From a virus (lineage: Duplodnaviria > Heunggongvirae > Uroviricota > Caudoviricetes), in the IMG/VR virus record IMGVR_UViG_2778261087_000005: a stretch of DNA of 38,097 bases; one strand, given 5' to 3'. A program made the position numbers and the translations under genes. Of this stretch, positions 2,716 through 16,560 are shown piece after piece (the first letter of the stretch is position 1; each line of letters starts with the position of its first letter). The notes under the pieces were generated by a model that made no database searches, had not been told where the DNA came from, and saw nothing but the letters and a program-made list of their open reading frames with translations.

Positions 2716-3000
2716 TTAGAACGGGCAGCCGGTACGGTGTTCCCAGTCGTATTCCGCCTGGGCGTAAGCAACTGCCGAAATGAAATCGTTGTAGGCCTCG
2801 CCAGCTTTATCGCTGCGAAGTCCTTCGTATGGGCTGGAGTCAATCGGTATGGAGAAGTGGAAGAGGCCGGACGGCTCTTTTGGCATCATGTCGATGATTT
2901 TCTGTGCCCGGTCGTCGATCCACTTCTCTTTCTCGTCGTCGAGCTGCTGCTCAACCCAGCGCCGATCTTCGATTCGGTCGTAAGTGAGGTATGCGTTCAT
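2716..3000 (-). CDS. Hypothetical acidic phage early protein
   Basis: 94-aa ORF; SD AGGAG 7 nt upstream of ATG 3000. Confidence 0.6.
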   Translation of the reverse strand: MNAYLTYDRIEDRRWVEQQLDDEKEKWIDDRAQKIIDMMPKEPSGLFHFSIPIDSSPYEGLRSDKAGEAYNDFISAVAYAQAEYDWEHRTGCPF

Positions 3001-3072
3001 GGCTGAACTCCTGAAATTTGGATGTGCAGATCCCGCCCGCGTAATGCCAGGCCGATCGGTTGAATAGGGTGG

Positions 3073-3270
3073 TTACTGCTGTGCGATGGATTTCGCCGGG
3101 AACTCGCCGTTGCGGAGGATGCTTTCTACCGGCCAGCACTCAGCTGACACTTTCTGCTCTGTAGCTGCCTGGCTGCATTCCTGCTGGCTGTCGTAAACGC
3201 CGAGAATGACATCCTGATAATCACCGTTTGTCATTGCTACGGTCAGGACGAGCGCGAATAAAGTTTCCAT
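3073..3270 (-). CDS. Small hypothetical protein with hydrophobic N-terminus (METLFALVLTVAM...)
   Basis: 65-aa reading from the internal ATG at 3270; that ATG overlaps the stop of the upstream 42-codon ORF as ATGA (translational coupling). Confidence 0.45.
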   Translation of the reverse strand: METLFALVLTVAMTNGDYQDVILGVYDSQQECSQAATEQKVSAECWPVESILRNGEFPAKSIAQQ

Positions 3271-3398
3271 CAGTGAAGAGTCCTCCCGATGGCGACGGCG
3301 TAAAGACGCTTTGCTTCTTCCCACGCCGGAGCATTGCGATGGAGTACCGCGAACGACGCTAGCCGTTGGGCCTCTCTGATCTGCTGCTGGTTTACCAT
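3270..3398 (-). CDS. Small hypothetical protein (42 aa, MVNQQQIREAQRLASF...)
   Basis: Not in the supplied ORF track (below 60 aa); translated by hand; SD AGAGGA 4 nt upstream of ATG 3398; ATGA overlap with the next gene. Confidence 0.4.
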   Translation of the reverse strand: MVNQQQIREAQRLASFAVLHRNAPAWEEAKRLYAVAIGRTLH

Positions 3399-3522
3399 GA
3401 TTTCCTCTTGGCCTTATCGCGGCGAACGGAACGTTAAACAAGACTTCTGCGCTAATGGGCGGTGGATGGCCGCCGGCTGTCATAAATGGGCAGACTCGAA
3501 AATCTGCCTATGTATGGCCGAT

Positions 3523-3543
3523 AAAAAACCCGCCGGAGCGGGT
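3523..3543 (-). terminator. Intrinsic terminator on the minus strand, immediately after the N-position gene (tL1-like)
   Basis: Minus-strand hairpin ACCCGC-uccg-GCGGGU followed by UUUUU; begins 1 nt after the stop codon at 3544-3546. Confidence 0.6.
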
Positions 3544-3699
3544 CTATTTGATGCGTCTTACTAACTGCCCCTGGACATTCACCCCGTCACCCGGCTGCAG
3601 CCTCCATAACTCTGAAAGTTGCAGATCCGTCCATGCGCGAAAATCAATCAACTCACGCAAAGAAAATCCTTTCTGATGATTAACCTCAAATTCTGGCAT
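3544..3699 (-). CDS. Hypothetical small protein in the N position of the leftward early operon
   Basis: 51 aa from ATG 3699 (SD GAGGGTAAGG upstream); the track ORF extends to 3795 only via a TTG start. Followed directly by an intrinsic terminator. No Arg-rich N-like motif, so antiterminator function is not supported by sequence. Confidence 0.45.
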   Translation of the reverse strand: MPEFEVNHQKGFSLRELIDFRAWTDLQLSELWRLQPGDGVNVQGQLVRRIK

Positions 3700-3927
3700 C
3701 GCCTTACCCTCTGTCGTTACCCGCTGATGCGGGAGAAATGCTTTGTGGTGCAGCGCCGGGTGCTTATCTTCCGGTTGCCGTCGATGCAGCTGCAATTCAC
3801 TGCACTACAAAACATTCCAGTTATTGCCGGGGTATTTATCCGCGCCCGGCGCGCGCTTTCCCGCTATTCCCCAACAGCAAGAAATCGCTTACTCTTTAAT
3901 CTCCCCAACAGTAGAAAGGATATATTC

Positions 3928-4149
3928 ATGCAAACCATGCGGACCGTGTGCCCTGACTGCGGAAGTGAGATGTTCAACCAGCCCGATGATTTTGACTTTG
4001 AGACAAATTTCACCGGCGTCAGTTGTGCTGACTGTGGTCGAGAAATCACTAAGGACGATGTTGTCAATCAGGCCACGGACACGGTCAAAAAACAGATCGA
4101 CGACATGCTCAGGAATTCCCTGAAAGGAACTGGCTGGAAGTTCAAGTAA
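3928..4149 (+). CDS. Zinc-ribbon protein (CPDCG...x21...CADCG), Lar-like architecture
   Basis: 73 aa from ATG 3928 with SD AGGA 7 nt upstream; two CxxCG pairs. An antisense 115-aa ORF (3889..4236) with its own good SD overlaps it, so strand assignment is uncertain. Confidence 0.4.
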   Translation: MQTMRTVCPDCGSEMFNQPDDFDFETNFTGVSCADCGREITKDDVVNQATDTVKKQIDDMLRNSLKGTGWKFK

Positions 4150-4580
4150 CTTTAAAAGCTCCCCGGCCTGGGTAAGCACCTCGCTGGCGTCTACGTTAAG
4201 CAGTAGTGGCGCCGTTTTTTTATCTGCCATACACACCCCTCTGTTTGTTTACCGTCAGCCCCTCGCAAAGAGCTGCTGGTAAATCGCTTTGCCATAATTG
4301 CCGCTCTTCCTGAGCCCGCCTATGGTCCGACGCATGGTTTACTGTCGCGCCGTTCGACTGACCAAATCTCCACTTCGCCGCTGGCTAACTTCGCTCAGCT
4401 GTCGATGTTTCGTTTCGATGGATTGATAATGTACCAATAGTTCATTCATGTAAAGTACCATAAGTACATTTTCTGTGAATAGAAAGTTCATATGCAATTA
4501 TCTTTATGAACTTTAAGGAGAAATATTTTTGAGTTTTTTATTGATTGAGGCGAGGGGGGGGATGGGGCTGGTTTGATTTA

Positions 4581-5168
4581 TTAGAGGTTCGTCACATCAA
4601 CAAGCCTTGTGTGACCATTGAAAGTTGCGAAAAGTCCGCCGTCTGGCTCAACTACTGAAAGTTCAGCGTATCGAAGGAAGTCTGTTTTGATAACGGACAT
4701 CAACACCTCTCCGGTATCAATGTTTATGACCTCAAGCCGGTGCGCGTAAAAATCATCTTTGTTTTTGCTGCCGGCAAACGATAGGGCGATGTAGCGCCCA
4801 AATTCAGATATGGACGAACTGATGAGGTGAGTGGAAGTTTCTATCTTGAATAACTCTTTCCCGGTGTTATCCATGACTATGGCTGCAGCCATGTTGTTGT
4901 CTTTGCCGGTATGTATAGAAAATAAAAATCGCCCGTTAACAGCTATGCATTGAGGCTTAGGAGAAAGCTGCCCGCCGAGCTTAACCATAAACATGAATTT
5001 TTCATTCTTCAATACCGCCAGAGTGTCATCTCTGAGATTGCTTTCATCACGCTTGAAAGCACCTAGCTGCCAACATTTATCGTGGCTTAATTTGCAGGTG
5101 ATGAAGTGGTCGCCAAGCTCGTATAAGGCGCTTCCATCACTCAGATCTGTAACCTTAATTGCTTCCAT
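4581..5168 (-). CDS. Unknown 195-aa protein co-operonic with the CI repressor (cargo gene)
   Basis: ATG 5168 lies 11 nt downstream of the cI stop with SD GAGGAAG; no TM segment; visibly more AT-rich than flanking phage genes; no family recognised. Confidence 0.7.
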   Translation of the reverse strand: MEAIKVTDLSDGSALYELGDHFITCKLSHDKCWQLGAFKRDESNLRDDTLAVLKNEKFMFMVKLGGQLSPKPQCIAVNGRFLFSIHTGKDNNMAAAIVMDNTGKELFKIETSTHLISSSISEFGRYIALSFAGSKNKDDFYAHRLEVINIDTGEVLMSVIKTDFLRYAELSVVEPDGGLFATFNGHTRLVDVTNL

Positions 5169-5179
5169 GCTTAACTTCC

Positions 5180-5935
5180 TCAGCTATGAAATCTGTATGC
5201 CCTTGACTGGCTTACCAGCACTTTCGCGCAGATGCGGAGAGAAGAAAAATCACCATCTTCGATGTACCAGGTTTCATATTTTTTATTGTCTGAAATCACA
5301 GCTAATTTTTTGTGCTGCTTTTGAAGTCGCTTTATGTAGAGATCATTGTCCAGAACGAAAATGTATATGCCGTCACCGTCAAAGCAGTCGATGCTGACGT
5401 CGACGAAGATCTGGTCTCGCGGCTCGAACGTGCCAGACATCGAATCGCCATTCACGGCAATCATTTTTATGTGGTCAGCTGGGCGCCCACCAAATACGGC
5501 GCGAGCCTCTTCGGTTGAATACTCTATGGATCGTATTGTTTCAATGAACTCATCTCGCACAAGAATTCCTTGCCCAGCGCTAGCTTGAATATCAAAAACG
5601 TCTACACGGAAAGAATCGTCCCTCATTGCCATATGCCCTTCAGATATGCCATCTGCTGCACTATCGCCTAATAGGTAAGACGAGGATGTGCCAATTATAG
5701 CCGCCAGTTCCTGCAGCTTGCCACGTCTTGGAATAGCCTCCCCATTGAACCACTTGCTTACCGCTTTAGGCGTGAGCTTCATTCGCTTGGCTATTTCAGC
5801 CTGACGTCCATGAGCAGGTAAACCAGCTTTATCACAGGCCAGCGCTAGCCGTTGGGAAAACTCTTTACGCGCTTTTTCTTCTTGAACCATAGGTTCAATC
5901 ATAATATCACTTGCGTGAACTATCAGTTCCGACAT
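5180..5935 (-). CDS. CI-like prophage repressor (N-terminal HTH, C-terminal LexA-type S24 peptidase)
   Basis: HTH region GRQAEIAKRMKLTPKAVSKWFNG; C-terminal AVNGDSM (Ser) and IYIKRL (Lys) dyad motifs. True start may be ATG 5902 or 5890 rather than 5935 (see findings). Confidence 0.8.
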   Translation of the reverse strand: MSELIVHASDIMIEPMVQEEKARKEFSQRLALACDKAGLPAHGRQAEIAKRMKLTPKAVSKWFNGEAIPRRGKLQELAAIIGTSSSYLLGDSAADGISEGHMAMRDDSFRVDVFDIQASAGQGILVRDEFIETIRSIEYSTEEARAVFGGRPADHIKMIAVNGDSMSGTFEPRDQIFVDVSIDCFDGDGIYIFVLDNDLYIKRLQKQHKKLAVISDNKKYETWYIEDGDFSSLRICAKVLVSQSRAYRFHS

Positions 5936-5938
5936 AAT
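5882..5938. promoter_or_regulatory. Immunity-region operators and pR-like promoter
   Basis: Perfect palindrome TTGAACCATAGGTTCAA (5882-5898) and palindrome GAACTATCAGTTC (5917-5929) sharing a TGAAC half-site; the second sits in the spacer of a candidate sigma70 promoter TTGCGT(5911-5916)-16 nt-CATAAT(5933-5938) facing cro. Confidence 0.45.
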
Positions 5939-5970
5939 ATGTACCTACAGTTCAATTTGAGGGTTAACAA

Positions 5971-6198
5971 ATGCAACCTAAGAACCTTGGCGACATCATC
6001 AAGCAAATCCGTGTACCGGTGGTGGCGAAGGCTTGCGGGCGCACTCCCCGCGCTATCTACAAGTGGATTAACAGCGGTTGCCTGCCGCGTACCGATTACA
6101 CCGGCGAAACAGGTTATGCGTCCAAAATCGCAGCTGCATCTGGTGGTCAGTTTACCGAGAACCAGATCCTTGAAATCAGTAAACCAAAAGCCGCTTAA
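5971..6198 (+). CDS. Cro-like HTH regulator
   Basis: 75 aa, divergent from cI; SD GAGGG 8 nt upstream; HTH-like segment RTPRAIYKWINSG. Confidence 0.7.
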   Translation: MQPKNLGDIIKQIRVPVVAKACGRTPRAIYKWINSGCLPRTDYTGETGYASKIAAASGGQFTENQILEISKPKAA

Positions 6199-6227
6199 CG
6201 GCGGCCCTAACCACGAAAGGGAAAGAA

Positions 6228-6794
6228 ATGCATTCACTTGCGTATCAACAGAGTAGCGGACTTGAACAACGTCCGTTGATTTCGATTTATCAAAGTGTTC
6301 CGCGTAATAACCGTAAGCTAACTCGAATACGGGAGGCAGTTAAGGCCTGGCAAAAAGCTACGCCGGGCCAGTCTCAGGTTCACATTTCTCAGCTGGTTGC
6401 GAAAGAGTGGCTGGCGCGCGGCGGGAAGGGGTTGTTACTGGCAGGTTCTGAACACAACACGAAGCAGAACTTCTTCCGGATGATTAACGATCCGGGCCCG
6501 AAGAACGACAAGGGGTTGATGCTACTGATCCCCGTCATTATCGACGTGATGGCGCGGGATAACGAGAAAGTGGCGAGAGAGTTCGGTCTGGTCGCAAAGA
6601 CTGAGGCCGAACTGATAGCCGAGGCCATGAAAGAGTGCACTGAAGCGCATCAGGCGAAGTTACTTGGTCAGCCGATACAACGCCTTGAGAAAGAGGTGAG
6701 AGAAGCTGCTGAAGCACTGCTGCGCTTCCTGCCAACTGAATCAATCGCTGCGGTGGTGACAAGTCTGGCCGCTATGGCGCCGGGAGTTATGTGA
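6228..6794 (+). CDS. Regulatory protein in the cII position (possibly YdaT-like)
   Basis: 188-aa ORF immediately after cro; function assigned from position only; family not confidently recognised. Confidence 0.45.
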   Translation: MHSLAYQQSSGLEQRPLISIYQSVPRNNRKLTRIREAVKAWQKATPGQSQVHISQLVAKEWLARGGKGLLLAGSEHNTKQNFFRMINDPGPKNDKGLMLLIPVIIDVMARDNEKVAREFGLVAKTEAELIAEAMKECTEAHQAKLLGQPIQRLEKEVREAAEALLRFLPTESIAAVVTSLAAMAPGVM

Positions 6795-6883
6795 TGGGAA
6801 GTATCAAAAATGGCGAAAGCCAGTCTGCGCGAACAGAACTGGCCTTCAAATGCAAATCGTGTGCACTCATTGCAGGAGGAATA

Positions 6884-7030
6884 ATGGCAAAAAAACCACG
6901 CTATTCCCATACCGCTGTACATAAAAACATTACCCGCGACCGCTTCATCCGCTCGGTTAATCCGATTGTGGCAGAGAAGATGCGCGCCATTCTGGAAGAA
7001 CTGAAACGTAAGGAGAGTGGTCGTGGATAA
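6884..7030 (+). CDS. Small basic protein (48 aa)
   Basis: Internal ATG 6884 of track ORF 6791..7030, preceded by strong SD AGGAGGA; its 3' end overlaps the O-like gene start. Confidence 0.4.
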   Translation: MAKKPRYSHTAVHKNITRDRFIRSVNPIVAEKMRAILEELKRKESGRG

Positions 7031-8108
7031 CCTCGCAAAAGTAATACCTTTCAGACCGTCTGTAACGGTCGTGGAGCGTCAGGTGGCAGATATCGATGAT
7101 GGGTATACCCGCATCGCTAACGAGCTGCTGGAAGCGGTTATGGCTGCTGATTTAACGGCTCGCCAGCTGAAGGTCGTTCTGGCGGTGATCCGCAAAACTT
7201 ACGGGTTCGGGAAAAAGTTTGACCGCATTACCAATACCCAGATTGCAGCAATGACCGGCATTCACCATACGCATGTCTGCAAGGCCAAGAACGAGATGAT
7301 TGCAATGAACATCATCGTTACCAACGGCCTGGCGATCGGGGTGAATAAGGTGATTTCTGACTGGAATTTCAGCATTAGCCAAAATGGCAAATCATTAGCC
7401 GAAACAGCTAATGAAACATTAGCCAAGTCAGCTAATACCCATAAGCCAACTCAGCTAAACACAAAAGAAACTATTCAAAAGAAAGAAAGAAAAGATCCCC
7501 CTAAATCCCCCCAGGGGGAAAACTCACTCGCTCAGGAAGTGATGGATTACTTCAACGAGCTAACGGGTAGTCGTTGTGCTGCGCTGGCACCTTTCGAGAA
7601 AGCTCTCTCCACGGTGAAGAGCAAAGACCAGTGCTACACCGCTGAAGAGCTGAAACTCGTTATCCGCTGGGCCCATGTGAACTGGGGTCACAGCTTCAAG
7701 CCAGAGAACCTGTGCCGTATGACCCGATTTGATGGATACCTGTCAGACGCCCTGATATGGGCTGATGGTCAGGGAAGCAACCCGGCAGCCTGTCCGCACG
7801 AAGAGATCATCAAGCTCTGGAATGAAAAATTCCCTTCGAAGGCTGTGTCGCTGCATGAGTGGAACCGCCGCCGTCCGGCCTATCGAGACCTGGAAGCTGT
7901 GTGGAACGGCAAAACCACCCAGGGCAACTGGCGAGAGCTGAAGCACATGGGAATGGCCTTCGAGCTGATTAGCAAGTCTTCCCTGTTCGGCACCAGAGGC
8001 GATCAGCCATGGCTGACTCTCGACTGGATACTGAATCCGAAGAACTGGGGATCTGTCTACGAGCAGGCTATCAACGAGCACCGTGAGCGCAAGGGAGTTA
8101 CAGCATGA
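7017..8108 (+). CDS. Replication initiation protein, lambda O-like
   Basis: N-terminal region (TRIANELLEAVMAADLTARQLKVVLAVIRKTYGFGK) resembles the phage replication protein O N-terminal domain; start is probably the GTG at 7023 (SD AGGAG at 7011-7015); stop overlaps the helicase ATG as ATGA. Confidence 0.8.
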   Translation: MVVDNLAKVIPFRPSVTVVERQVADIDDGYTRIANELLEAVMAADLTARQLKVVLAVIRKTYGFGKKFDRITNTQIAAMTGIHHTHVCKAKNEMIAMNIIVTNGLAIGVNKVISDWNFSISQNGKSLAETANETLAKSANTHKPTQLNTKETIQKKERKDPPKSPQGENSLAQEVMDYFNELTGSRCAALAPFEKALSTVKSKDQCYTAEELKLVIRWAHVNWGHSFKPENLCRMTRFDGYLSDALIWADGQGSNPAACPHEEIIKLWNEKFPSKAVSLHEWNRRRPAYRDLEAVWNGKTTQGNWRELKHMGMAFELISKSSLFGTRGDQPWLTLDWILNPKNWGSVYEQAINEHRERKGVTA

Positions 8109-9478
8109 GCCGTTTTATCGATTTGTACGTTGAGCAGGCCGTCATCGGCGGGATCATGCTCGCAGCGGGCCGCACAGACGGCGTTGACATGGCGACTGAC
8201 GCGATTGAGGGGCTGACTGAGGACCACTTCACAGCAACGCCCCATAAAGTGGCTCTGAAGTCCTATAAGCGACTCAACGAATCCGGTTCGAAGATAGACC
8301 TGCTGACGTTGACCAGCGACCTTGAACGGCTTGGCGCGCTGGAAAGTGCCGGGGGATTCGCTTACCTGGCTGAATGCAGCAAAAACACACCGTCGTTCGC
8401 GAACCTTGCCTCGTACTGCGAAAAGTTGCGGGAAATGCATCTCGGCCGCCGGATGACCCTGGCGCTACAGGTAGGGATCCAGAAGCTGTCCGAACCATCC
8501 AGTGAGGGTATCGCTGACATCATCGGCAACATACAGGCCGATATCTCTGGTATTGAGCACAGTGCGGACTATGGCACTGAGCACATCACCACCGGGATCG
8601 ACATGTCGTTAGAGACTATCCAGTCGATTATCAGCGGCGATATCTGGAAGCACAAAACCGAGCTTGGCATGGCAACCATCGACAGCGCTTTTGGCGGGTT
8701 CAACAACACCGATTTCATCGTTGTCGGCGGGCGCCCGGGCATGGGGAAAACCATGTTCAGCACCACCGTGACCGAGACTGTCGGCCTGAAAAACAAAAAG
8801 CCTGTGCTGTTCTTCAGCCTGGAAATGCCAGTTGATCAGATCTCCGAACGTGTCGCGTTCCACCGGGCACGGGTGAGTAAAGAGGATTTACTCAGCAAGC
8901 AGAGCGGCGTAATGGATGGTGCCTGGGGAAAGGTCGGCCACTGCATGAAGGATTTCATCGAAGCCCCGATCTATATCAACGACAAGCCATCCCTCAGCGT
9001 TCATCAGGTGCGAGCGGAAGCCAGGCGAATGAGCAAGAAACTGGGTGGACTTGGTGTGGTCATTGTCGATTACCTCCAGAAGATGCGCATGTCTGACCCT
9101 GAGAACATGAACCGCAGCGTAGGGGAGATCGCCACCGGCCTGAAGAACCTGGCGAAAGAATTGCGTTGCCCGGTCATCGCACTGGCTCAGCTTAACCGTA
9201 AGGTCGAAGAACGTGCTAATAAGCGCCCGGTCGCAGCTGACCTCCGCGAGTCCGGTGTTATCGAGCAGGAAGCCGATGTGATTTTCATGATCTACCGGGA
9301 TGAGAAATACAACCCGAACACCGAACTGAAAGGCATCACCGAAATCATCTGTGTGAAGTCCCGCCATGCGCCGGGGGCAGAAAAGACCTACCACTTCAGC
9401 AGCCGCTACTCAGGCCTGGACCCGGTAGATTTCACCTACAGCGGCCAGATGCAACAGGAGGCTGACTATGAGTGCTAA
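8105..9478 (+). CDS. DnaB-family replicative helicase
   Basis: 457 aa; Walker A GGRPGMGKT and DnaB C-terminal domain motifs; follows the O-like gene as in P22-type replication modules. Confidence 0.85.
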   Translation: MSRFIDLYVEQAVIGGIMLAAGRTDGVDMATDAIEGLTEDHFTATPHKVALKSYKRLNESGSKIDLLTLTSDLERLGALESAGGFAYLAECSKNTPSFANLASYCEKLREMHLGRRMTLALQVGIQKLSEPSSEGIADIIGNIQADISGIEHSADYGTEHITTGIDMSLETIQSIISGDIWKHKTELGMATIDSAFGGFNNTDFIVVGGRPGMGKTMFSTTVTETVGLKNKKPVLFFSLEMPVDQISERVAFHRARVSKEDLLSKQSGVMDGAWGKVGHCMKDFIEAPIYINDKPSLSVHQVRAEARRMSKKLGGLGVVIVDYLQKMRMSDPENMNRSVGEIATGLKNLAKELRCPVIALAQLNRKVEERANKRPVAADLRESGVIEQEADVIFMIYRDEKYNPNTELKGITEIICVKSRHAPGAEKTYHFSSRYSGLDPVDFTYSGQMQQEADYEC

Positions 9479-9782
9479 GACGATGAAAGGCAAACAGGCA
9501 ATTCTGCGTTATCTCGAAACGCACCGGACCTTCACCGCGAAGGATGTGGCCACAGAGTGCGGCATGACCATCAACTGCATCACGAAGAACGCTATCGACC
9601 TGGAGCGGGCCCGCAAGATTGTCCGGGTGAGTAAGGTCTGGCGAACAGTGACTTATCGCCAGGCGACGCCGGAAGAGCAGGCTGGTACCGCGCGCAGCTG
9701 CACCAACGGAATATTTCTGGAGTGCCGGAACAGTCCGGCCATGAAGCGAGTATTGATGGTTTGGGGGAGGGTAGGGGTATGA
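9468..9782 (+). CDS. Hypothetical protein
   Basis: 104-aa ORF; ATG 9468 overlaps the helicase end; stop overlaps the next ATG as ATGA. Confidence 0.6.
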   Translation: MSAKTMKGKQAILRYLETHRTFTAKDVATECGMTINCITKNAIDLERARKIVRVSKVWRTVTYRQATPEEQAGTARSCTNGIFLECRNSPAMKRVLMVWGRVGV

Positions 9783-10067
9783 GTATTATTTACAAGAAAA
9801 CAGTAACACCATCTGAAGATTTGGCCTGAGTACTATTCAGCCGTTCGCGCAGGACAGAAGCGTGCAGAGCTCAGATGGAATGACCGAGATTACCAGGCAG
9901 GCGACAATCTCGATCTGTGCGAGTGGGACCCGAACGAAGAAGCCTTTACCGGTGAATTCACCAAAGTCACCGTTACACATGTCGCTGAACTTGGTAACTG
10001 GATACCGGGTTATGTACTGCTGAGTAACGCTCTTTTATCGCCAGCAGTGGATGTGAAAACGACCTGA
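9779..10067 (+). pseudogene. DUF3850/ASCH-like gene, apparently frameshifted near codon 10
   Basis: ATG 9779 opens a 16-codon ORF (MSIIYKKTVTPSEDLA). The conserved DUF3850-like body (HHLKIWPEYYSAVRAGQKRAELRWNDRDYQ...) is in another frame, preceded by an in-frame TAA at 9804-9806 with no canonical start. Removing one A in GTAACA (about 9802-9807) joins the two frames. Confidence 0.5.
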
Positions 10068-10222
10068 TGCCTTGCCCATACTGCGATGGAAAGGCTGAAT
10101 TTGATTATGACGACGATAACCTCAATTGGATATCTTGTAACGCGTGCGGAATCGCTGCACTTTATGATCATGAGAAGCCCGTGCTGACGGGCACAGAAAA
10201 CAGTACGGGTGCAATAAATTAG
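10067..10222 (+). CDS. Lar-like zinc-ribbon protein (putative restriction alleviation)
   Basis: 51 aa, MPCPYCDGKAEF...x17...CNACG; ATG overlaps the upstream stop (TGATG). Not in the ORF track (below 60 aa). Confidence 0.5.
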   Translation: MPCPYCDGKAEFDYDDDNLNWISCNACGIAALYDHEKPVLTGTENSTGAIN

Positions 10223-10656
10223 TACGAAACAATTATATCAAGCTTTTCTCCAATGATTTTCAAAGAAGAGTAGATGGATTGGCCTGAAGGAGATGGATTA
10301 CTGGAATATGAATTGTTGCCGCCTTCTAAGATGGAAGCTATTAAATTTAGTTGGTGTGACGCTTCAATCACATCGCTGTAAACTGGAGTAAGGCCTATTT
10401 TTGAGAAAAAATTATAGAATGGGATTGCTTTCGATTTTGCAATTAAAAGACCTGATGACGCCTTTAGCTCATGTATTAATTCGCTATTTGGCTTAAAATT
10501 CATTATTTTACTTTGCTCGCGAAGTAAGAGTGACGAAATTCTTCCCAGATGCTCCTTGAACGAGATATACGTTTCCAATGCGCATTTGGTTATTATTTGA
10601 CCTATGACGTAGACGGTCACACCAGTGATAATTGTAGTAAAAACAGTAAGCCACAT
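10219..10656 (-). CDS. Membrane-anchored hypothetical protein (AT-rich cargo gene, antisense to early operon)
   Basis: 145 aa; N-terminal TM helix (WLTVFTTIITGVTVYVIGQII); strongly AT-rich by eye; convergent with the Lar-like gene with overlapping stop codons. Confidence 0.65.
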   Translation of the reverse strand: MWLTVFTTIITGVTVYVIGQIITKCALETYISFKEHLGRISSLLLREQSKIMNFKPNSELIHELKASSGLLIAKSKAIPFYNFFSKIGLTPVYSDVIEASHQLNLIASILEGGNNSYSSNPSPSGQSIYSSLKIIGEKLDIIVSY

Positions 10657-10790
10657 AATCAGTTAACGCCTTTAGCTAAAATGCAATTATGTATCCTATA
10701 GCTCCAGTGATTTGTCCAGATAAATTGGGTGGTCATGGCACATCATCGCCGCGACTATAAGAATACTTTGCTCATACCGTTCGCGCCGCC

Positions 10791-10964
10791 ATGCTTCAGG
10801 GTGCCACGCAAGATAGCAACTCTCCGGTGATTCCGGATGGTTGGGTGATGGTTCAGAAGGAGCCAACGCCAGATATGCTTAATGCCGCCTGGGTGTCACA
10901 TGGCATTTACCATGCATCTGCTTATCGTACGATGCTCGCAGCAGCTCCGCAGCAGGTGAAGTGA
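10791..10964 (+). CDS. Small ORF (57 aa), possibly a gene remnant
   Basis: Hand-translated (MLQGATQDSNSPVIPDGWVMVQKEPTPDMLNAAWVSHGIYHASAYRTMLAAAPQQVK); no clear SD; low confidence. Confidence 0.25.
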   Translation: MLQGATQDSNSPVIPDGWVMVQKEPTPDMLNAAWVSHGIYHASAYRTMLAAAPQQVK

Positions 10965-11001
10965 CGAACAAGTTGACGAGAGTTACCATAGATATAAATC
11001 A

Positions 11002-11024
11002 AGGCCCCTAGGGGCCTTTTATTC
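11002..11024 (+). terminator. Intrinsic terminator
   Basis: AGGCCC-ctag-GGGCCU hairpin followed by UUUUAUU. Confidence 0.6.
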
Positions 11025-11057
11025 TATGATAAACGGACTTTGTTTGAGAGTGACGCT

Positions 11058-11384
11058 ATGAAGCCCAAGAAGCTAAATGCTGAGCAGCAATACAAATTAG
11101 ACCTTGAGTTGGTCAAGAAGAAACCTGCGAACCGTACAGAGGCAAAAGCCCATTTGGCGGCGCAGTTACGGATCAGCAAGTACAAGGCGCAGAACTCATC
11201 AAAAATCCGCGCAGGCAGTTTCAGGGGGCGGAAGAAGGTGCATTTCAGTAAGGCCGAAGACGAGGCCAGGGCAGCACTAAATAAAGCCAATGCCATTAGA
11301 TTTTCCGAAGGGGAGGTCGAATCCGTCGATACGGATCGAATCTCAGAAAGTAACAAACGCTGGCGCGGGAGAACTGCTGACTAA
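11058..11384 (+). CDS. Hypothetical basic (Lys/Arg-rich) protein
   Basis: ATG 11058 within track ORF 11040..11384; stop overlaps the next ATG (TAATG). Confidence 0.55.
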
Positions 11385-11632
11385 TGTCTGACTGGAACAT
11401 TGCAGCAAAGCCGCAGGAAGATCGCGATAAGGTTAACGTTGACCTGGCTGCCTCCGGAGTGGCGTACAAAGAGCGCCTGAATATGCCGGTTATCGCTGAG
11501 GTGGTGATGCGCGAGCAGCCAGAGCATTTGCGTGATTACTTCCTTGAGCGCCTGAAGTTTTATCGCGAGAAGTCGATAACTTTACCGAAAGTTAGCGATC
11601 CGTTTTACCTGAAACAGGAGGAAGGGAAGTGA
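11384..11632 (+). CDS. Hypothetical protein (82 aa)
   Basis: Translationally coupled on both sides (TAATG upstream, GTGA downstream). Confidence 0.55.
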
Positions 11633-12279
11633 TTATTGATGAACATTTTAAGGATAGAGTCTCGAGTCATCTATCTCAGAAAATAATCGAAGACGCATTA
11701 AATGGAAGGGGATTTTTCGCCCGAAATGTGTTGGAGTCCATTCGGCTTCTTGAGGGAATGAAGGTTGCCCCATCAACTTTAGCAATGCGTCATCAAGAGC
11801 GTGAATTAAAGGGTGCGTTGGCCGGATTTCATCATATACATGTTTCAGAGGATAATTTCACTCGAGCTTTCAATGCGTACAGGCAAAAAGGAGAAGCGCC
11901 TGAGAAAAATCCATCCGAGCCGGCTTTACAAGGCCGGGGCAATCGCAATGCTATTCAGATGTTTTTGGAGCAAAATGGAGTTAGTGCTAAAGATGCTTCG
12001 TTTGAAGAACTTATCATAAGATTCCAGGATCTTATTGAACAGATGGGAGAAGAAAATGCAAAAGAGCAAATTTCTCGTATTGCTGCTGAGCTATCTTGGA
12101 AACCGTTTAAGGGTAATGATGTAATTTCTGGAGACTGGCTAGTCTATTGGGTGAGACAGGACGGTGTAAGATTTTATATCGATAGTTTTGAACACATCCC
12201 CGCAACCGATACAAAACTGCAGAATTCCACCGCAAATTCATTACACGCCATTCTTCAAAGCATGGATACCGCCGTTTGA
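11629..12279 (+). CDS. Hypothetical 216-aa protein (AT-rich cargo gene)
   Basis: GTG start 11629 with strong SD AGGAGG about 9 nt upstream; visibly AT-rich compared with neighbours; no family recognised. Confidence 0.65.
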
Positions 12280-12452
12280 TTTTCAAGAATCATCCAGCCA
12301 TAATCATGTCATCGGAGCCTGAACAACTCCGGTGACTTCTGCGCATTTAAGGGGACTTAAATGCGACCACAATCTGAACTCTTCACCTTGTCACAGATGC
12401 AGAAATGCACCTGCGATTTTCTACATTCTGCGGTTTCCAATAAGGAGGCCGT

Positions 12453-12908
12453 ATGACTCTGCCAGTTGACGGAATCAAACTCCATCGAGGCAACTTCGCG
12501 GCCATCGGCCAGCAGATTCAGCCATTGCTGGATGCCGGGCAGTACTTCCGCCTGCAGGTTAAGCCGTGGCGCGAGAAGCGCAGCCTGTCGCAGAACGCGC
12601 TCAGCCACATGTGGTACACGGAAATCAGCGATTACCTGATTAACTCCGGACGCACCGACGCGACTCCTGAGTGGGTTAAGCGCAACCTCAAAAAGACATA
12701 TCTCGGCTGCGAAGAGGTGACCTACACCGACTTCATCACCGGCGAAAAAAACACTACATGGGAACCGCGACATACCGCCAATCTCGATACCGGGGAAATG
12801 CATATTTTCCTGGTAAAGGTTGAAATGTGGTGCGCTCAGTTCGGCCTTGCCCTGACTATCCCGAACGGCTGCGAGTACCAGCAGCTGCGCGATAAGCAGG
12901 AGGCCTGA
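12453..12908 (+). CDS. ninB: NinB-like recombination protein
   Basis: 151 aa; motif REKRSLSQNALSHMWYTEISD resembles the NinB/Orf family; SD AGGAGG 4 nt upstream; lies just before NinG. Confidence 0.75.
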   Translation: MTLPVDGIKLHRGNFAAIGQQIQPLLDAGQYFRLQVKPWREKRSLSQNALSHMWYTEISDYLINSGRTDATPEWVKRNLKKTYLGCEEVTYTDFITGEKNTTWEPRHTANLDTGEMHIFLVKVEMWCAQFGLALTIPNGCEYQQLRDKQEA

Positions 12909-13078
12909 TGTCTACTCCACTTTCCCGCGTTATCAGTAACGAAATCTTCCGCGTTCCGGCGCGCCGCCAGCGCAAGCCCGCGGTTAAGCCGTCCGAAATC
13001 CCGACCATGAAGGACTACACCGCCTGCCTGGTGGATCAGAAATGGCTGCGTCTCGCGGCGAGGAGAGCGCATGGCTAA
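12908..13078 (+). CDS. Small nin-region protein (56 aa)
   Basis: ATG overlaps the NinB stop (TGATG); hand-translated; overlaps the NinG start by 8 nt. Confidence 0.4.
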   Translation: MSTPLSRVISNEIFRVPARRQRKPAVKPSEIPTMKDYTACLVDQKWLRLAARRAHG

Positions 13079-13682
13079 GTTACCGCGCCGCAAGTGCGCC
13101 CATAAAGCCTGTCGCCAGTGGTTCCACCCGGTACGCGACGGGCAGGTAGTTTGCTCATTCGAGTGCGCCAGCGCTATCGGCAAAGAACAGACCGCAAAAT
13201 CCCGTGAAGCCGCTCAGCAGAAGGAAGCGCAGCGTCAGCGCACCGAAGAGAAAGCTGGTCGCCAACGGCGTGCTGCGCGCCGTAATGAACTTAAGCCGAT
13301 ACGTCACTGGGTACAGATGACTCAGCGCGCCTTCAACGACTGGCGTCGCGAAATGCTGCTGGCAGCCGGTCACGGTTGCATCTCTTGCGGAACCAAGACC
13401 GCCTTTGCCTGGCATGCCGGGCATTACCGCACTACGGCCGCCGCACCGCAACTTCGCTTTAACCAGGACAATATCTGGCTGCAGTGCTCCGCCTGCAACG
13501 TTCACAAATCCGGAAACATCGAGGCATACCGCGCCGCCCTGATTGAGCTGATTGGCGAGGAGCGCGTGCTGGCGCTGGAATCCAACAACGAAACCCACCG
13601 ATACACCCGTGAAGAGCTGGATGGCATCCGCGCTAAGGCACGGGCAGATCTTCGCGCATTCAAACAGCAGGTGGCAGCATGA
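13071..13682 (+). CDS. ninG: NinG/Rap recombination-associated protein
   Basis: 203 aa; close resemblance to lambda Rap/NinG, including CISCGT...DAGHYRTTAAAPQLRFN...CNVHKSGN. Confidence 0.8.
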   Translation: MAKLPRRKCAHKACRQWFHPVRDGQVVCSFECASAIGKEQTAKSREAAQQKEAQRQRTEEKAGRQRRAARRNELKPIRHWVQMTQRAFNDWRREMLLAAGHGCISCGTKTAFAWHAGHYRTTAAAPQLRFNQDNIWLQCSACNVHKSGNIEAYRAALIELIGEERVLALESNNETHRYTREELDGIRAKARADLRAFKQQVAA

Positions 13683-14062
13683 GCACAGAAACCGAAATTG
13701 AACTGGGCACGGTTGTCGCGTTCCCGACGAAGAATAACGACCTACAGGACGGGCTGGTTATTCAGCGCGAAGGGCAGAAGGTTATGTGCCTGCACTCCAC
13801 TGTTTGGGTGAATGAAAAAGACCGGACCTTACGCTGCCGGAAGTGCGACACGCTGATCGAACCTTTTGACTTCCTTATGACGCTCTGCGACCAGGAGTCT
13901 CGCTACATGGAGAACGTGAAATATCTCCGCCGGGAAGAAAAGCAGCGCCGTCAGAATATCGAGAAGCTCATTCAGATTGAGAAGAACGCCAAAGCCCGTA
14001 TTCGCCGCGCCGGGGATAAGTCGCCACTTCCTCTCTGGCAGAACGAGAGGGTTGAAGAATGA
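13679..14062 (+). CDS. Hypothetical nin-region protein
   Basis: 127-aa ORF coupled to the NinG stop. Confidence 0.55.
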   Translation: MSTETEIELGTVVAFPTKNNDLQDGLVIQREGQKVMCLHSTVWVNEKDRTLRCRKCDTLIEPFDFLMTLCDQESRYMENVKYLRREEKQRRQNIEKLIQIEKNAKARIRRAGDKSPLPLWQNERVEE

Positions 14063-14175
14063 CGCGTGACCAGATTATGCGGTACCAGGCCGAAAGCGTT
14101 AAGCGCGCCAACCTGCCGCCAGTAGCAAACCACAGCCAGAACAAAACCAACCAGCCACATAAGGAAGCCGCATGA
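14059..14175 (+). CDS. Small ORF (38 aa)
   Basis: Hand-translated; overlaps both neighbours; low confidence. Confidence 0.25.
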   Translation: MTRDQIMRYQAESVKRANLPPVANHSQNKTNQPHKEAA

Positions 14176-14861
14176 ACAGTCAGCAACTGGAATACGTACG
14201 TCAGCAGCTCATTGTGGCGACCGCAGATCTGAGCGGGGCGACGAAAGGGCAGCTGGTAGCTTTTGCCGAGAATGCGCAATTCACCGCGACGGCGCGCAGC
14301 CGGGGCCGGAAAAAGGTATTCGACAAGGATAAGCAGCGCATGGTCAACCCGGATGGTCCGCCGATGAGCGGCAGCCAGTCACGCGCTAAGGGCTCGTCTA
14401 TCGCGCTGGTCAGCCCTGTGGAGTTTGGTACCGCGTCATGGCGCCGCGCCGTCCTGTCGCTGGAAGAACACCAGAAAGCGTGGCTGCTGTGGAACTACAG
14501 CGAGAATATCCGCTTCGAATACCAGGTGGCGATCACCCAGTGGGCGTGGGCAGAGTTCCGGGAACAGCTCGGCGCGAAGAAGGTGGCCGGCAAGACGATT
14601 GAGCGCCTGAAGAAGCTTATCTGGCTGGCGGCGCAGGACGTCAAAGCGGAGCTGGCGGGTAAGGATGTGTATCAGCATCAGGACCTGGCCGCCCTGTGTG
14701 GCGTTAAGCCGGATAACTGGTGTCATAACTACGCCGATTACTGGCTTGCCATGTGCGCCATCTTTAAGCGGCTTGATGGCGATTCACTCCTCTGTACTGT
14801 GAGAACACGATCACAACAAAAAGCGACTTTTTCGCAGCAGGGTATTGCAAAAGTCAATTAA
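14172..14861 (+). CDS. Putative late-gene antiterminator (Q position)
   Basis: 229-aa ORF as the last early gene before the lysis cassette; SD AAGGAAG; assignment is from position, family not verified. Confidence 0.45.
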   Translation: MNSQQLEYVRQQLIVATADLSGATKGQLVAFAENAQFTATARSRGRKKVFDKDKQRMVNPDGPPMSGSQSRAKGSSIALVSPVEFGTASWRRAVLSLEEHQKAWLLWNYSENIRFEYQVAITQWAWAEFREQLGAKKVAGKTIERLKKLIWLAAQDVKAELAGKDVYQHQDLAALCGVKPDNWCHNYADYWLAMCAIFKRLDGDSLLCTVRTRSQQKATFSQQGIAKVN

Positions 14862-14926
14862 ATAGCATACTTTTCATGTAAATCTGATATCTTCGCCATA
14901 GCTTTGTAGGACGACAAAGAATTAAC

Positions 14927-14958
14927 AGCCTCGCCATCGTGCGGGGCTTTGTTTTTTG
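14927..14958 (+). terminator. Intrinsic terminator about 65 nt downstream of the Q-position gene (tR'-like)
   Basis: 8-bp stem AGCCUCGC/GCGGGGCU with a 6-nt loop, followed by UUGUUUUUUG. Confidence 0.55.
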
Positions 14959-15050
14959 TGCTTTCTGTAAACCAAGTGGGCGTTAAAAGTTAAAAATCAT
15001 TATTTACTTATTTAAAATGTGGCCTCCACTTAAAACAGAGAGACCTCATC

Positions 15051-15290
15051 ATGAAGAATTTCCAGCTTTATGTTGGCGGCACTAACAACATCACCTATCG
15101 TTACGAAATTCATAAGATGGATGATGCTTTTAGTGTTCGGATTTTTAATGTCATCGATAAAGCACACAAAGAAGTGGGGGCTAAACTCCTTCGCTCAGTT
15201 TCATCTCACGACGTAATTGATGAGTGCGTGTCACATTACAAAAGGCAAGCGCAAGGCGTTAAGGGTTTTCTTCGCTGGCTTGGATTGTGA
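15051..15290 (+). CDS. Hypothetical 79-aa protein (AT-rich cargo gene in the Q-holin interval)
   Basis: ATG 15051; AT-rich upstream region with promoter-like hexamers; own terminator downstream; no family recognised. Confidence 0.6.
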   Translation: MKNFQLYVGGTNNITYRYEIHKMDDAFSVRIFNVIDKAHKEVGAKLLRSVSSHDVIDECVSHYKRQAQGVKGFLRWLGL

Positions 15291-15308
15291 AAAAGTATCA
15301 GATTAAAC

Positions 15309-15331
15309 AGGTCGCTTAGGCGGCCTTTTTT
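15309..15331 (+). terminator. Intrinsic terminator
   Basis: AGGUCGC-uuag-GCGGCCU (one G-U pair) followed by UUUUU; near-identical to the terminator at 22737. Confidence 0.7.
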
Positions 15332-15335
15332 GTTT

Positions 15336-15608
15336 CTGCACAACAGGAAAGAGCATTTGCAGGGTTCGACTCCCTGCCGTGGGGTTGTGCCACATGATGC
15401 GAGTAATGAGTGCTCTCTCCGTTGTGGTGTAACTCAATTCCCGCTTGCGGGTTAAATGGGTAAAGTAATGCATCAACTGGCATAGCCAGCAGGGCAGGCA
15501 TGATGCTAATGCTGAACCTGAGTATCGGTTCGAGTCCGATCGCCACACACCAGAACCCACTACCTGGGATCCTTCGGCCAGAGAGCCGACATTGCCTTAC
15601 CCTCATCT
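15336..15608 (+). other. Non-coding late-leader region with two tRNA-like T-arm hairpins
   Basis: CAGGG-TTCGACT-CCCTG (15360-15376) and ATCGG-TTCGAGT-CCGAT (15524-15540) match T-stem/T-loop consensus, but no complementary 5' acceptor strand was found at tRNA distance, so no complete tRNA gene is called. Confidence 0.3.
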
Positions 15609-15609
15609 T

Positions 15610-15632
15610 CCCGGCCTGTCGCCGGGTTTTTT
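15610..15632 (+). terminator. Intrinsic terminator about 100 nt upstream of the holin
   Basis: CCCGGC-cuguc-GCCGGG followed by UUUUUU. Confidence 0.7.
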
Positions 15633-15731
15633 ATTCAGGCCGCAGACAATCAATTCCAGATGCCCCGTAGCTATCGTGTCTGACGGCCTTTTCTCAACTA
15701 CCACACAGCACCCCGGACCCGGAGGTGTGGA

Positions 15732-16052
15732 ATGCAACGTATGAACCCAACAAATGGACACGATCTGCCGTACTGGTGGTCGGCGGCCTTGGGCCTGTTC
15801 TCTTTGCTTAGCCTGCAGGATTACGTGTTTATTATCGGCGCGCTGGTATCGGCGTTCTTCACGATAAAAACCTATTACGCAAAACGGAAAGAAGAGCGTA
15901 AGCGTATGGCTGAGGAAAGGAAACGAACCCAGCTGCTGGAAAACTACTTATCTGATGTAGGTAAAAAACCTCACTCCGATCGTCCGGCTGCCGCCGAGGT
16001 GGTTACGGAGGCAATGCGGAGAATTTCCGGTGGCACAGTTGAAACTGAGTAA
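15732..16052 (+). CDS. Holin, two-TM class (pinholin-like)
   Basis: 106 aa; dual-start-like MQRM; two hydrophobic segments and a basic C-terminus; SD GGAGGTG; immediately upstream of a SAR endolysin. Confidence 0.7.
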   Translation: MQRMNPTNGHDLPYWWSAALGLFSLLSLQDYVFIIGALVSAFFTIKTYYAKRKEERKRMAEERKRTQLLENYLSDVGKKPHSDRPAAAEVVTEAMRRISGGTVETE

Positions 16053-16560
16053 GAAAAGCGGCGCGGCGGGCATTGTCTGCTCCGTAGGAACGATCATCGC
16101 CATTGTGGTGAATGCGGGCCATGTCAGGACTAACGAGCGCGGGCTAGAGTTAATCGGTAACGCTGAGTCTTGCCTGCGTGATCCATATGTCTGCCCGGCA
16201 GGTGTGCTGACTGACGGTATGGGTAATACGCATGGCGTAAAACTAGGCACCGTTAAGTCTGACCAACAGATCGCAGCCGAGTGGGAGCGCAACATCCTTG
16301 ATGCTGAGTCCTGTGTTAACCGCTACGGGAATGGCAGAAAGCTATCTGACGATACTTTCTCTGCGGCTGTATCGGTAACGTTTCGTGCTGGCTGCGGAAA
16401 CATGCGAACCTCCACGATGTTCTCTCTTCTCAGAAGTGGAGACATCACGGCGGCATGCAACCAGTTCCCTCGCTGGGTATGGGGTGGAGGCAAGGTTCTT
16501 CCTGGTCTGGTCACTCGCGCCGGGAAAGAAAAGTCGCTCTGCCTGGATGGTGTGAAATGA
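16030..16560 (+). CDS. SAR endolysin (phage lysozyme, P21 R-like)
   Basis: N-terminal signal-anchor-release segment ([21 protein letters not shown]); C-terminal region closely resembles P21-type lysozyme ([35 protein letters not shown]); GTG start overlaps the holin end. Confidence 0.85.

Follow-up and report, generated by a model that had tools for sequence, protein, structure and literature searches.

We propose that the lambdoid prophage in the window (the whole 38,097-nt stretch of DNA that was analysed) very probably relies on processive antitermination by a put-type RNA rather than by an N protein. The leftward early transcript carries an RNA that belongs to the put family by sequence, fold, covariation and position, and we infer from experiments with phage HK022 and from the annotation of phage HK639 that this RNA is an antiterminator. 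The original prediction had described a gene in the position of lambda N that is followed by a strong intrinsic terminator and whose product lacks the arginine-rich motif of N proteins, and had offered two ways of accounting for this: antitermination by a different protein or by an RNA element, or leftward expression that is limited by the terminator. The put-type RNA supports an RNA element acting instead of N, with its activity predicted by homology. The mechanism is already known and this type of RNA is already annotated in HK639, such that the window is a new carrier of it with different cargo. The cargo slot in which the small gene sits, and leader modules that are neither put nor nut, are more novel; most of this material lies outside the window. 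Features are listed in Table 1.

Table 1. Positions of the early control region and neighbouring features in the window, in the order in which they are met from the replication genes leftward.
Feature	Position	Strand	Details
Replication genes	from 7017
cII/YdaT-like gene	6228-6794	+
cro-like gene	5971-6198	+
cI-like repressor gene	5180-5935	-
Leftward early promoter, pL	4454-4426	-	-35 TTTACA, 17-nt spacer, -10 CATTAT; start ~A4419
Conserved 5' leader of the pL transcript	4419-4360	-	~60 nt, ahead of the put RNA
put-type RNA (antiterminator by homology)	4359-4290	-	Stem I, pseudoknotted, 4359-4328; stem II, ~4326-4290
Third stem-loop	4283-4248	-	Folds at -16.9 kcal/mol; followed by SD GAGGGG and ATG 4230
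113-codon ORF, HK639_45 homologue (coding status uncertain)	4230-3889	-	On the pL strand; codon-aligned antisense to the zinc-ribbon gene
Terminator-like hairpin and U7 after the zinc-ribbon gene	4186-4221	+	Centroid fold GGCGUCUAC...GUAGUGGCGCC, then GUUUUUUU
73-aa CxxC...CxxC zinc-ribbon gene, ECs_2282 family	3928-4149	+	Convergent with pL
Conserved translation-initiation leader of the slot	3702-3733	-	Hairpin CCCGC-AUCA-GCGGG, SD GAGGG
51-aa gene (most likely cargo)	3699-3544	-	Corrected start ATG 3699, SD GAGGG; 51-aa homologues
Intrinsic terminator tL1, abutting the stop codon	3543-3523	-	Fold and shuffle test; HK639 annotation; position of phi80 tL1A
42-aa ORF behind the terminator	3270-3398	-	ORF list
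DUF1482 gene behind the terminator	3073-3273	-	Pfam DUF1482, E = 4e-24
gamL (GamL) behind the terminator	2716-3000	-	PGAP annotation of the near-identical GB089 prophage

Results

The early-left region of a mosaic lambdoid prophage

The window holds a lambdoid prophage of E. coli that adjoins a sucrose/oligosaccharide permease gene, and positions 3300-4600 are 99.9% identical to prophages of E. coli GB089 and three other strains. The early-left control region most likely belongs to a mosaic lambdoid prophage of E. coli. Compared with the GB089 prophage, which is otherwise 99.9% identical, the window is without ~4.75 kb to the left of gamL, at ~2716; the missing segment encodes RecT, an HTH protein, an exonuclease, DUF1317 and MT-A70. 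We found no integrase gene between the host permease gene and an xis-like ORF at 1795-1998.

The leftward promoter was found by a promoter scan; it lines up with the HK639 feature labelled "putative pL" and is closely similar to the PL promoter and operator sequence of HK022. Directly 3' of pL, 47 nt (4422-4376) match the beginning of the phi80 pL transcript at every position. This 5' leader, which is common to phi80, is kept across loci with different operator regions, and is also present at loci that carry other modules instead of put.

A put-type RNA on the pL transcript

A search for put-like RNA structures, which the original prediction had suggested, found one on the pL transcript, scoring 86 bits with the covariance model described below. 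The RNA is on the same strand as pL and begins ~60 nt from the transcription start (~+61). Over 126 nt (4352-4227), the window copy has two differences from the "putL-like antiterminator RNA" of HK639 (98% identity), and the wider region (3704-4424), where the HK639 record annotates pL, the putL-like RNA and two terminators, is 94% identical to HK639. The RNA also aligns position for position with HK022 putL, which we extracted from the HK022 genome and to which we applied the numbering of PMC9378689, from A3 (4359) to position 72 (4290). It keeps A8, A9, U28, G35, G42-G45 and A63-U65, the residues highlighted in a cryo-EM and mutational study of HK022 putL (PMC9378689), as well as an identical stem I loop and the -10-like AACCAU element; A8, A9, U28, G35, G43, G45 and A64 make contact with RNA polymerase or are required for activity (PMC9378689).

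To place this RNA among its relatives, viral contigs were scanned for a 14-nt core, yielding 40 distinct put-like sequences, 29 of them aligned; RNA positions 22-35 are invariant among these relatives by construction of the search pattern. We imposed the base pairs of the HK022 cryo-EM structure (stem I, with 3-7/15-19 and 10-14/30-34, and stem II), including those of the pseudoknotted 5' duplex, on the 29-sequence alignment. The pairs are formed in 92.1% of cells, as compared with 76.1% in shuffles, and the covariation score is 0.411, as compared with 0.116 in shuffles and reached by none of 500 shuffles. Ten pairs have changes on both sides among the 29 relatives, and control pairings made by sliding the HK022 pairs were all at most 48% paired. 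A covariance model built from the alignment gives the window RNA a score of 86.4 bits (E = 4e-19), and recovers HK022 putR, which was outside the training set, at 40.6 bits (E = 4e-8). The put-type RNA is nearly unchanged in many phages and prophages that have different immunity regions and cargo.

The bulged U68 of lower stem II is absent in the window and in HK639, both of which have five contiguous pairs instead in the model alignment. Deletion of U68 in HK022 abolishes termination suppression (PMC9378689), and other members of the put family place the stem II bulge at other positions. An Rfam scan of 3000-9000 (E <= 1) matched no put family, its sole match being a spurious one to rsmX (E = 0.86) that was caused by the terminator. 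The third stem-loop, which is included in the 126-nt put annotation of HK639, was considered as part of put and rejected: loci with non-put modules carry the same stem-loop, and it therefore belongs to the downstream segment rather than to put proper. In one viral contig (L099), a boxA-like sequence (…GCGTCGGAACCGCTCTTTAACAATCTGG…) directly abuts put stem I, and this locus looks like a put/nut recombinant.

No N homologue and no nut site

We searched the window with the N proteins of lambda, P22, phi21 and phi80 by tblastn and found nothing below E = 0.2; the lambda, P22 and phi21 query sequences are possibly approximate. A six-frame scan for arginine-rich windows gave only scattered, out-of-context matches, and the PGAP annotation of the 99.9%-identical GB089 prophage includes Q and no N. 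The original prediction had named boxA/boxB-like nut elements alongside put-like RNA as things to look for, and here only the put half of the search succeeded: no boxA was found on the minus strand of 3380-4430, and the phi80 boxA and nut core lie in the segment that is replaced by put. The sole boxA match is on the plus strand and sits inside the reverse complement of put stem II.

For the rightward operon, no putR-like element was found in 5900-16500 (no match above 8.4 bits with filters off), and none was found in HK639 either, so the phage is without the full HK022 scheme. A palindromic terminator-like site lies upstream of the nin/Q region, on the plus strand at 11001-11018 (AAGGCCCCTAGGGGCCTT), and with no putR-like site in the right operon we found no override for it. 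Two hairpins after cII were considered as a right-operon antiterminator and rejected, since they are an oop/M3-like RNA. This small antisense RNA follows the cII-like gene (~6801-6880, minus strand) and has a terminator hairpin at 6843-6819, then UUUCGCCAUUUUU; its layout is that of the "M3-like RNA" of HK639, with compensatory changes in the stems. The M3 RNA of phi80 is annotated as an oop homologue.

The terminator behind the small gene

The minus-strand terminator is a real intrinsic terminator, as strong and as close to the gene as had been predicted. The ORF stops at TAG 3546-3544 and the hairpin, ACCCGC-UCCG-GCGGGU, starts on the next base; it has a 6-bp stem (A3543-C3538 / G3533-U3528) with five G-C pairs, a 4-nt loop (UCCG) and a run of six U residues (3528-3523) that overlaps the hairpin, the first U pairing with A3543. 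Folded in its 56-nt context it reaches -17.5 kcal/mol (z = -3.3), and none of 200 shuffles was as stable. The hairpin sequence is that of a terminator annotated in HK639, and it occupies the place of phi80 tL1A. The likeness to the lambda N/tL1 layout holds as well, since the small gene also uses the phi80 N initiation region: 49 nt (3697-3745) share 98% identity with the sequence ahead of phi80 N.

Two further minus-strand hairpins lie behind tL1, at 3508-3489 (then CAUUUAU) and at 3474-3458. This stretch, 3508-3458, folds with z = -2.95 and is homologous to phi80 and to HK639, where the second annotated terminator sits. Beyond it, the 42-aa ORF, the DUF1482 gene and gamL are most likely the genes that would depend on read-through, given the antitermination that homology predicts.

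A conserved 51-aa protein in the position of N

The original prediction began the gene at TTG 3795, a start that was not borne out. Homologues have been annotated with a variety of upstream starts and agree with one another only from Met33 on. The preceding 32 codons, which begin at TTG 3795, form a conserved non-coding leader found ahead of unrelated proteins as well, including phi80 "N"; the gene therefore encodes 51 aa from ATG 3699, behind the Shine-Dalgarno sequence GAGGG. It had also been called the first gene of the leftward operon. It is on the pL transcript and is not clearly first, because the 113-codon ORF lies between it and pL; it may instead be the second ORF. The gene encodes a real small protein, since homologues of exactly 51 aa have diverged with conservative substitutions, the lowest identity being ~57% (residues counted by hand). 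Differences from an Enterobacter copy fall 7/5/9 on the three codon positions and are clustered at the 3' end.

The observation that the product has no arginine-rich motif stands: five Arg and two Lys residues are scattered among seven acidic residues, giving a net charge of ~0 and no basic patch. It had been allowed that profile searches might show the protein to be a known, unrelated regulator; Pfam, PHROGs and NCBIfam profiles, run against the 83-aa ORF from TTG 3795, matched no family. A sequence search of the PDB with the 51-aa family alignment gave no match, and HMMER searches of 1.84 billion representatives returned only close 51-aa relatives and three spurious long, repetitive proteins. 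AlphaFold2 models the 51-aa protein as a two-helix hairpin (pLDDT 71), and a Foldseek comparison of this model with viral structures gave no match below E = 3.6.

Members of the 51-aa family are found behind put, behind nutL and, most often in our sample, behind the type 3 module described below. They are also found in Enterobacter prophage remnants, between tail genes and integrase and far from any pL or put. The family is thus not tied to one upstream module, which argues against the 51-aa protein being an antiterminator. The product is most likely a conserved small cargo protein, and neither an antiterminator nor a regulator of the terminator.

A hypervariable cargo slot behind alternating leader modules

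When the 32-nt initiation leader was scanned alone in viral contigs and species-representative genomes, 119 usable loci were obtained. In these loci the exact 32-mer stands ahead of 68 distinct proteins from 35 unrelated families, phi80 "N" included, with lengths from 28 to 212 aa; a Pfam scan of 16 cargo proteins matched two (Nmad5 and DUF551). A terminator-like motif lies within a few bases of the stop codon in all 24 loci checked (the put-pattern set plus phi80), and the terminator of the window follows most cargo genes of the slot. HK639 has a different slot gene, of 149 aa, with put and the terminator as in the window. Since 35 unrelated families occur within the same bracket of ribosome-binding-site leader and terminator, we regard the "N position" as a hypervariable cargo slot.

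Upstream of the slot, after the common 5' leader, at least four modules alternate: the HK639-type put, the phi80-type nutL, and two others that we call types 3 and 4. Types 3 (locus L146) and 4 (loci L177, L251 and L150) are structured leader modules that take the place of put after the conserved pL leader, and, its module apart, L146 has the same sequence as the window from the third stem-loop through the 51-aa gene. The put model, run with filters off, did not match the type 3 and 4 modules; those of L146 and L177 gave no Rfam match, and no arginine-rich ORF follows them. They may be candidate antitermination modules that have not yet been described. In L177, 47 nt between the leader module and the slot (6266-6312, minus strand) match bacterial 16S rRNA 237-283 (Rfam RF00177, E = 5e-6).

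The phi80 "N" (L126 1653-1949) is itself one cargo family, present in 6 of the 18 loci with a phi80-like boxA and nut core and in 4 of the 34 loci with put. Loci with a phi80-like nutL include L145, L184 and L210. In the nutL loci without this family the cargo is unrelated, and no N-like ORF lies between nutL and the slot, which prompts the question whether the 98-aa phi80 "N" is really the antiterminator.

Overlapping ORFs between pL and the slot

The zinc-ribbon gene, which PGAP annotates on the plus strand, matches NCBIfam NF047912 at 83 bits (cut-off 37). When five homologues (38-74% identical) are compared pairwise, every pair differs most often at codon position 3 of this gene, and amino-acid identity is higher in the zinc-ribbon frame than in the antisense frame; indeed, substitutions within the overlap fit the plus frame and not the minus frame of the 113-codon ORF. 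The 113-codon ORF is nonetheless annotated as a CDS in HK639 and four other phages, is open in all five homologues, down to ~40% identity, and has an N-terminal part outside the overlap, with an "IDASE" motif, that is similar in all five. The plus-strand hairpin could also explain the conservation of this N-terminal part. Whether the 113-codon ORF is coding is uncertain, and the two frames may form an antisense overlapping gene pair. Every GenBank depositor of the region has annotated the minus strand. In L116, a different ORF begins at the same ATG. The plus-strand hairpin has a folding energy no better than that of shuffles (z = +0.6), so calling it a terminator depends on its motif.

Discussion

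A model for early-left antitermination

In the mechanism that we propose, host RNA polymerase would initiate at pL, at ~4419, and transcribe the 60-nt leader, after which the next ~70 nt of RNA (4359-4290) would adopt the two-stem fold of put. Homology with HK022 putL predicts that this RNA, while still being made, would bind the beta' zinc-binding domain of its own polymerase and stay bound, such that the polymerase becomes resistant to pauses and terminators. In a study of HK639 putL, read-through was reportedly promoted and dependent on the beta' zinc-binding domain. The modified polymerase would cross the antisense side of the zinc-ribbon gene, then the 51-aa gene, and would read through tL1 and the hairpins behind it, allowing expression of the 42-aa ORF, the DUF1482 gene and gamL. 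Because no phage protein would be needed for this, the slot that holds N in phi80 would be free for cargo.

The original prediction had also allowed that leftward expression is simply limited by the terminator: the put-like RNA would be inactive or weak, most pL transcripts would stop at 3523-3543, the genes downstream would be barely expressed, and the prophage may be decaying. Such a state would fit with an HK639-type stem II that is without the U68 bulge needed in HK022, with three tandem hairpins behind the gene, and with the ~4.75 kb of recombination genes that are missing relative to GB089 and the lack of a visible integrase by the host junction. We nonetheless consider it unlikely, because the RNA is nearly invariant across immunity regions and cargo and its stems covary, because HK639, a viable phage, has this element annotated as an antiterminator, and because the genes behind the terminator are typical early-left genes for which the scan gave no promoter-like site of their own. 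The terminator could also mark the end of an exchangeable cassette, with put read-through being partial, such that attenuation fixes the ratio of cargo to downstream expression. The stop codon always abuts the terminator stem, and the terminator and ribosome-binding-site leader are the conserved borders of the slot, as would be expected of a cassette; we think it very unlikely that this is the better account, and it is in any case compatible with put-mediated antitermination, differing only in degree.

An unconventional antiterminator without an arginine-rich motif, in the form of the 51-aa protein, could in principle replace N: the protein is conserved, and its gene has exactly the initiation region found at phi80 "N", ahead of a terminator of the same kind. 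This is extremely improbable, given that the protein lacks a basic patch and matched neither a family nor a structure, that the slot holds 35 unrelated families behind the same upstream modules, that HK639 pairs the same put and terminator with another gene, and that Enterobacter remnants retain the 51-aa gene at sites remote from any pL or put. Antitermination by the put-type RNA remains the reading that we favour.

Replacement of N and nut by a self-sufficient RNA would free a prime, early-expressed position for cargo. We suggest, tentatively and with considerable doubt, that the N position is a dedicated exchange slot bordered by a ribosome-binding-site hairpin and a terminator, in which cargo with roles in conflict is made first while the upstream RNA modules antiterminate. 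If so, slot proteins would be the earliest made upon induction or infection, with no terminator ahead of them, and would act in phage-host or phage-phage conflict, for example in exclusion, counter-defence or host take-over. Such a slot could exist because antitermination is supplied by exchangeable RNA modules upstream of it. The survey of the slot provides ~35 orphan early protein families and two leader modules as candidates for conflict functions and for RNA antitermination, respectively. When lambdoid genomes are annotated, the combination of a missing N and a strong tL1-type terminator does not have to mean a defective prophage: it would be explained by a put-type RNA of ~70 nt, which is missed by gene callers and by Rfam alike.

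Comparison with known systems

The closest known counterpart is the early-left region of HK639 (NC_016158), which has the same order of parts as the window: pL, the putL-like RNA, HK639_45, HK639_44 and two terminators. The two are 94% identical from the slot leader to pL, their first terminators are identical, and they share the zinc-ribbon region. HK639 also resembles the window in having no putR-like element and an oop/M3-like RNA after cII. It differs in its slot gene, which encodes 149 aa rather than 51 aa, and in the operator/immunity region upstream of the transcription start.

HK022 putL (7XUE, PMC9378689) shares with the window RNA stem I with its 5' duplex, the G35/A9 platform and the middle and upper parts of stem II, and lies downstream of a closely similar PL promoter. 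In lower stem II the sequences differ, the window having compensatory changes that give five contiguous pairs with no bulged U68. The RNA begins at ~+61 in the window and at +3 in HK022, and HK022 has a second site, putR, which the window prophage does not. In HK022, the N position carries nun.

In phi80 (JX871397), as in the window, the stop codon abuts an intrinsic terminator and the region behind the terminator is homologous. However, phi80 has boxA and the nut core where the window has put, and the 98-aa "N" where the window has the 51-aa gene, and its terminator hairpin has a different sequence. The window shares with the lambda N/nutL/tL1 system the logic that a terminator after the first early-left gene must be overridden for later genes to be expressed. 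Unlike lambda, it has no N homologue, arginine-rich motif or boxA/boxB, and we attribute the override to an RNA acting in cis.
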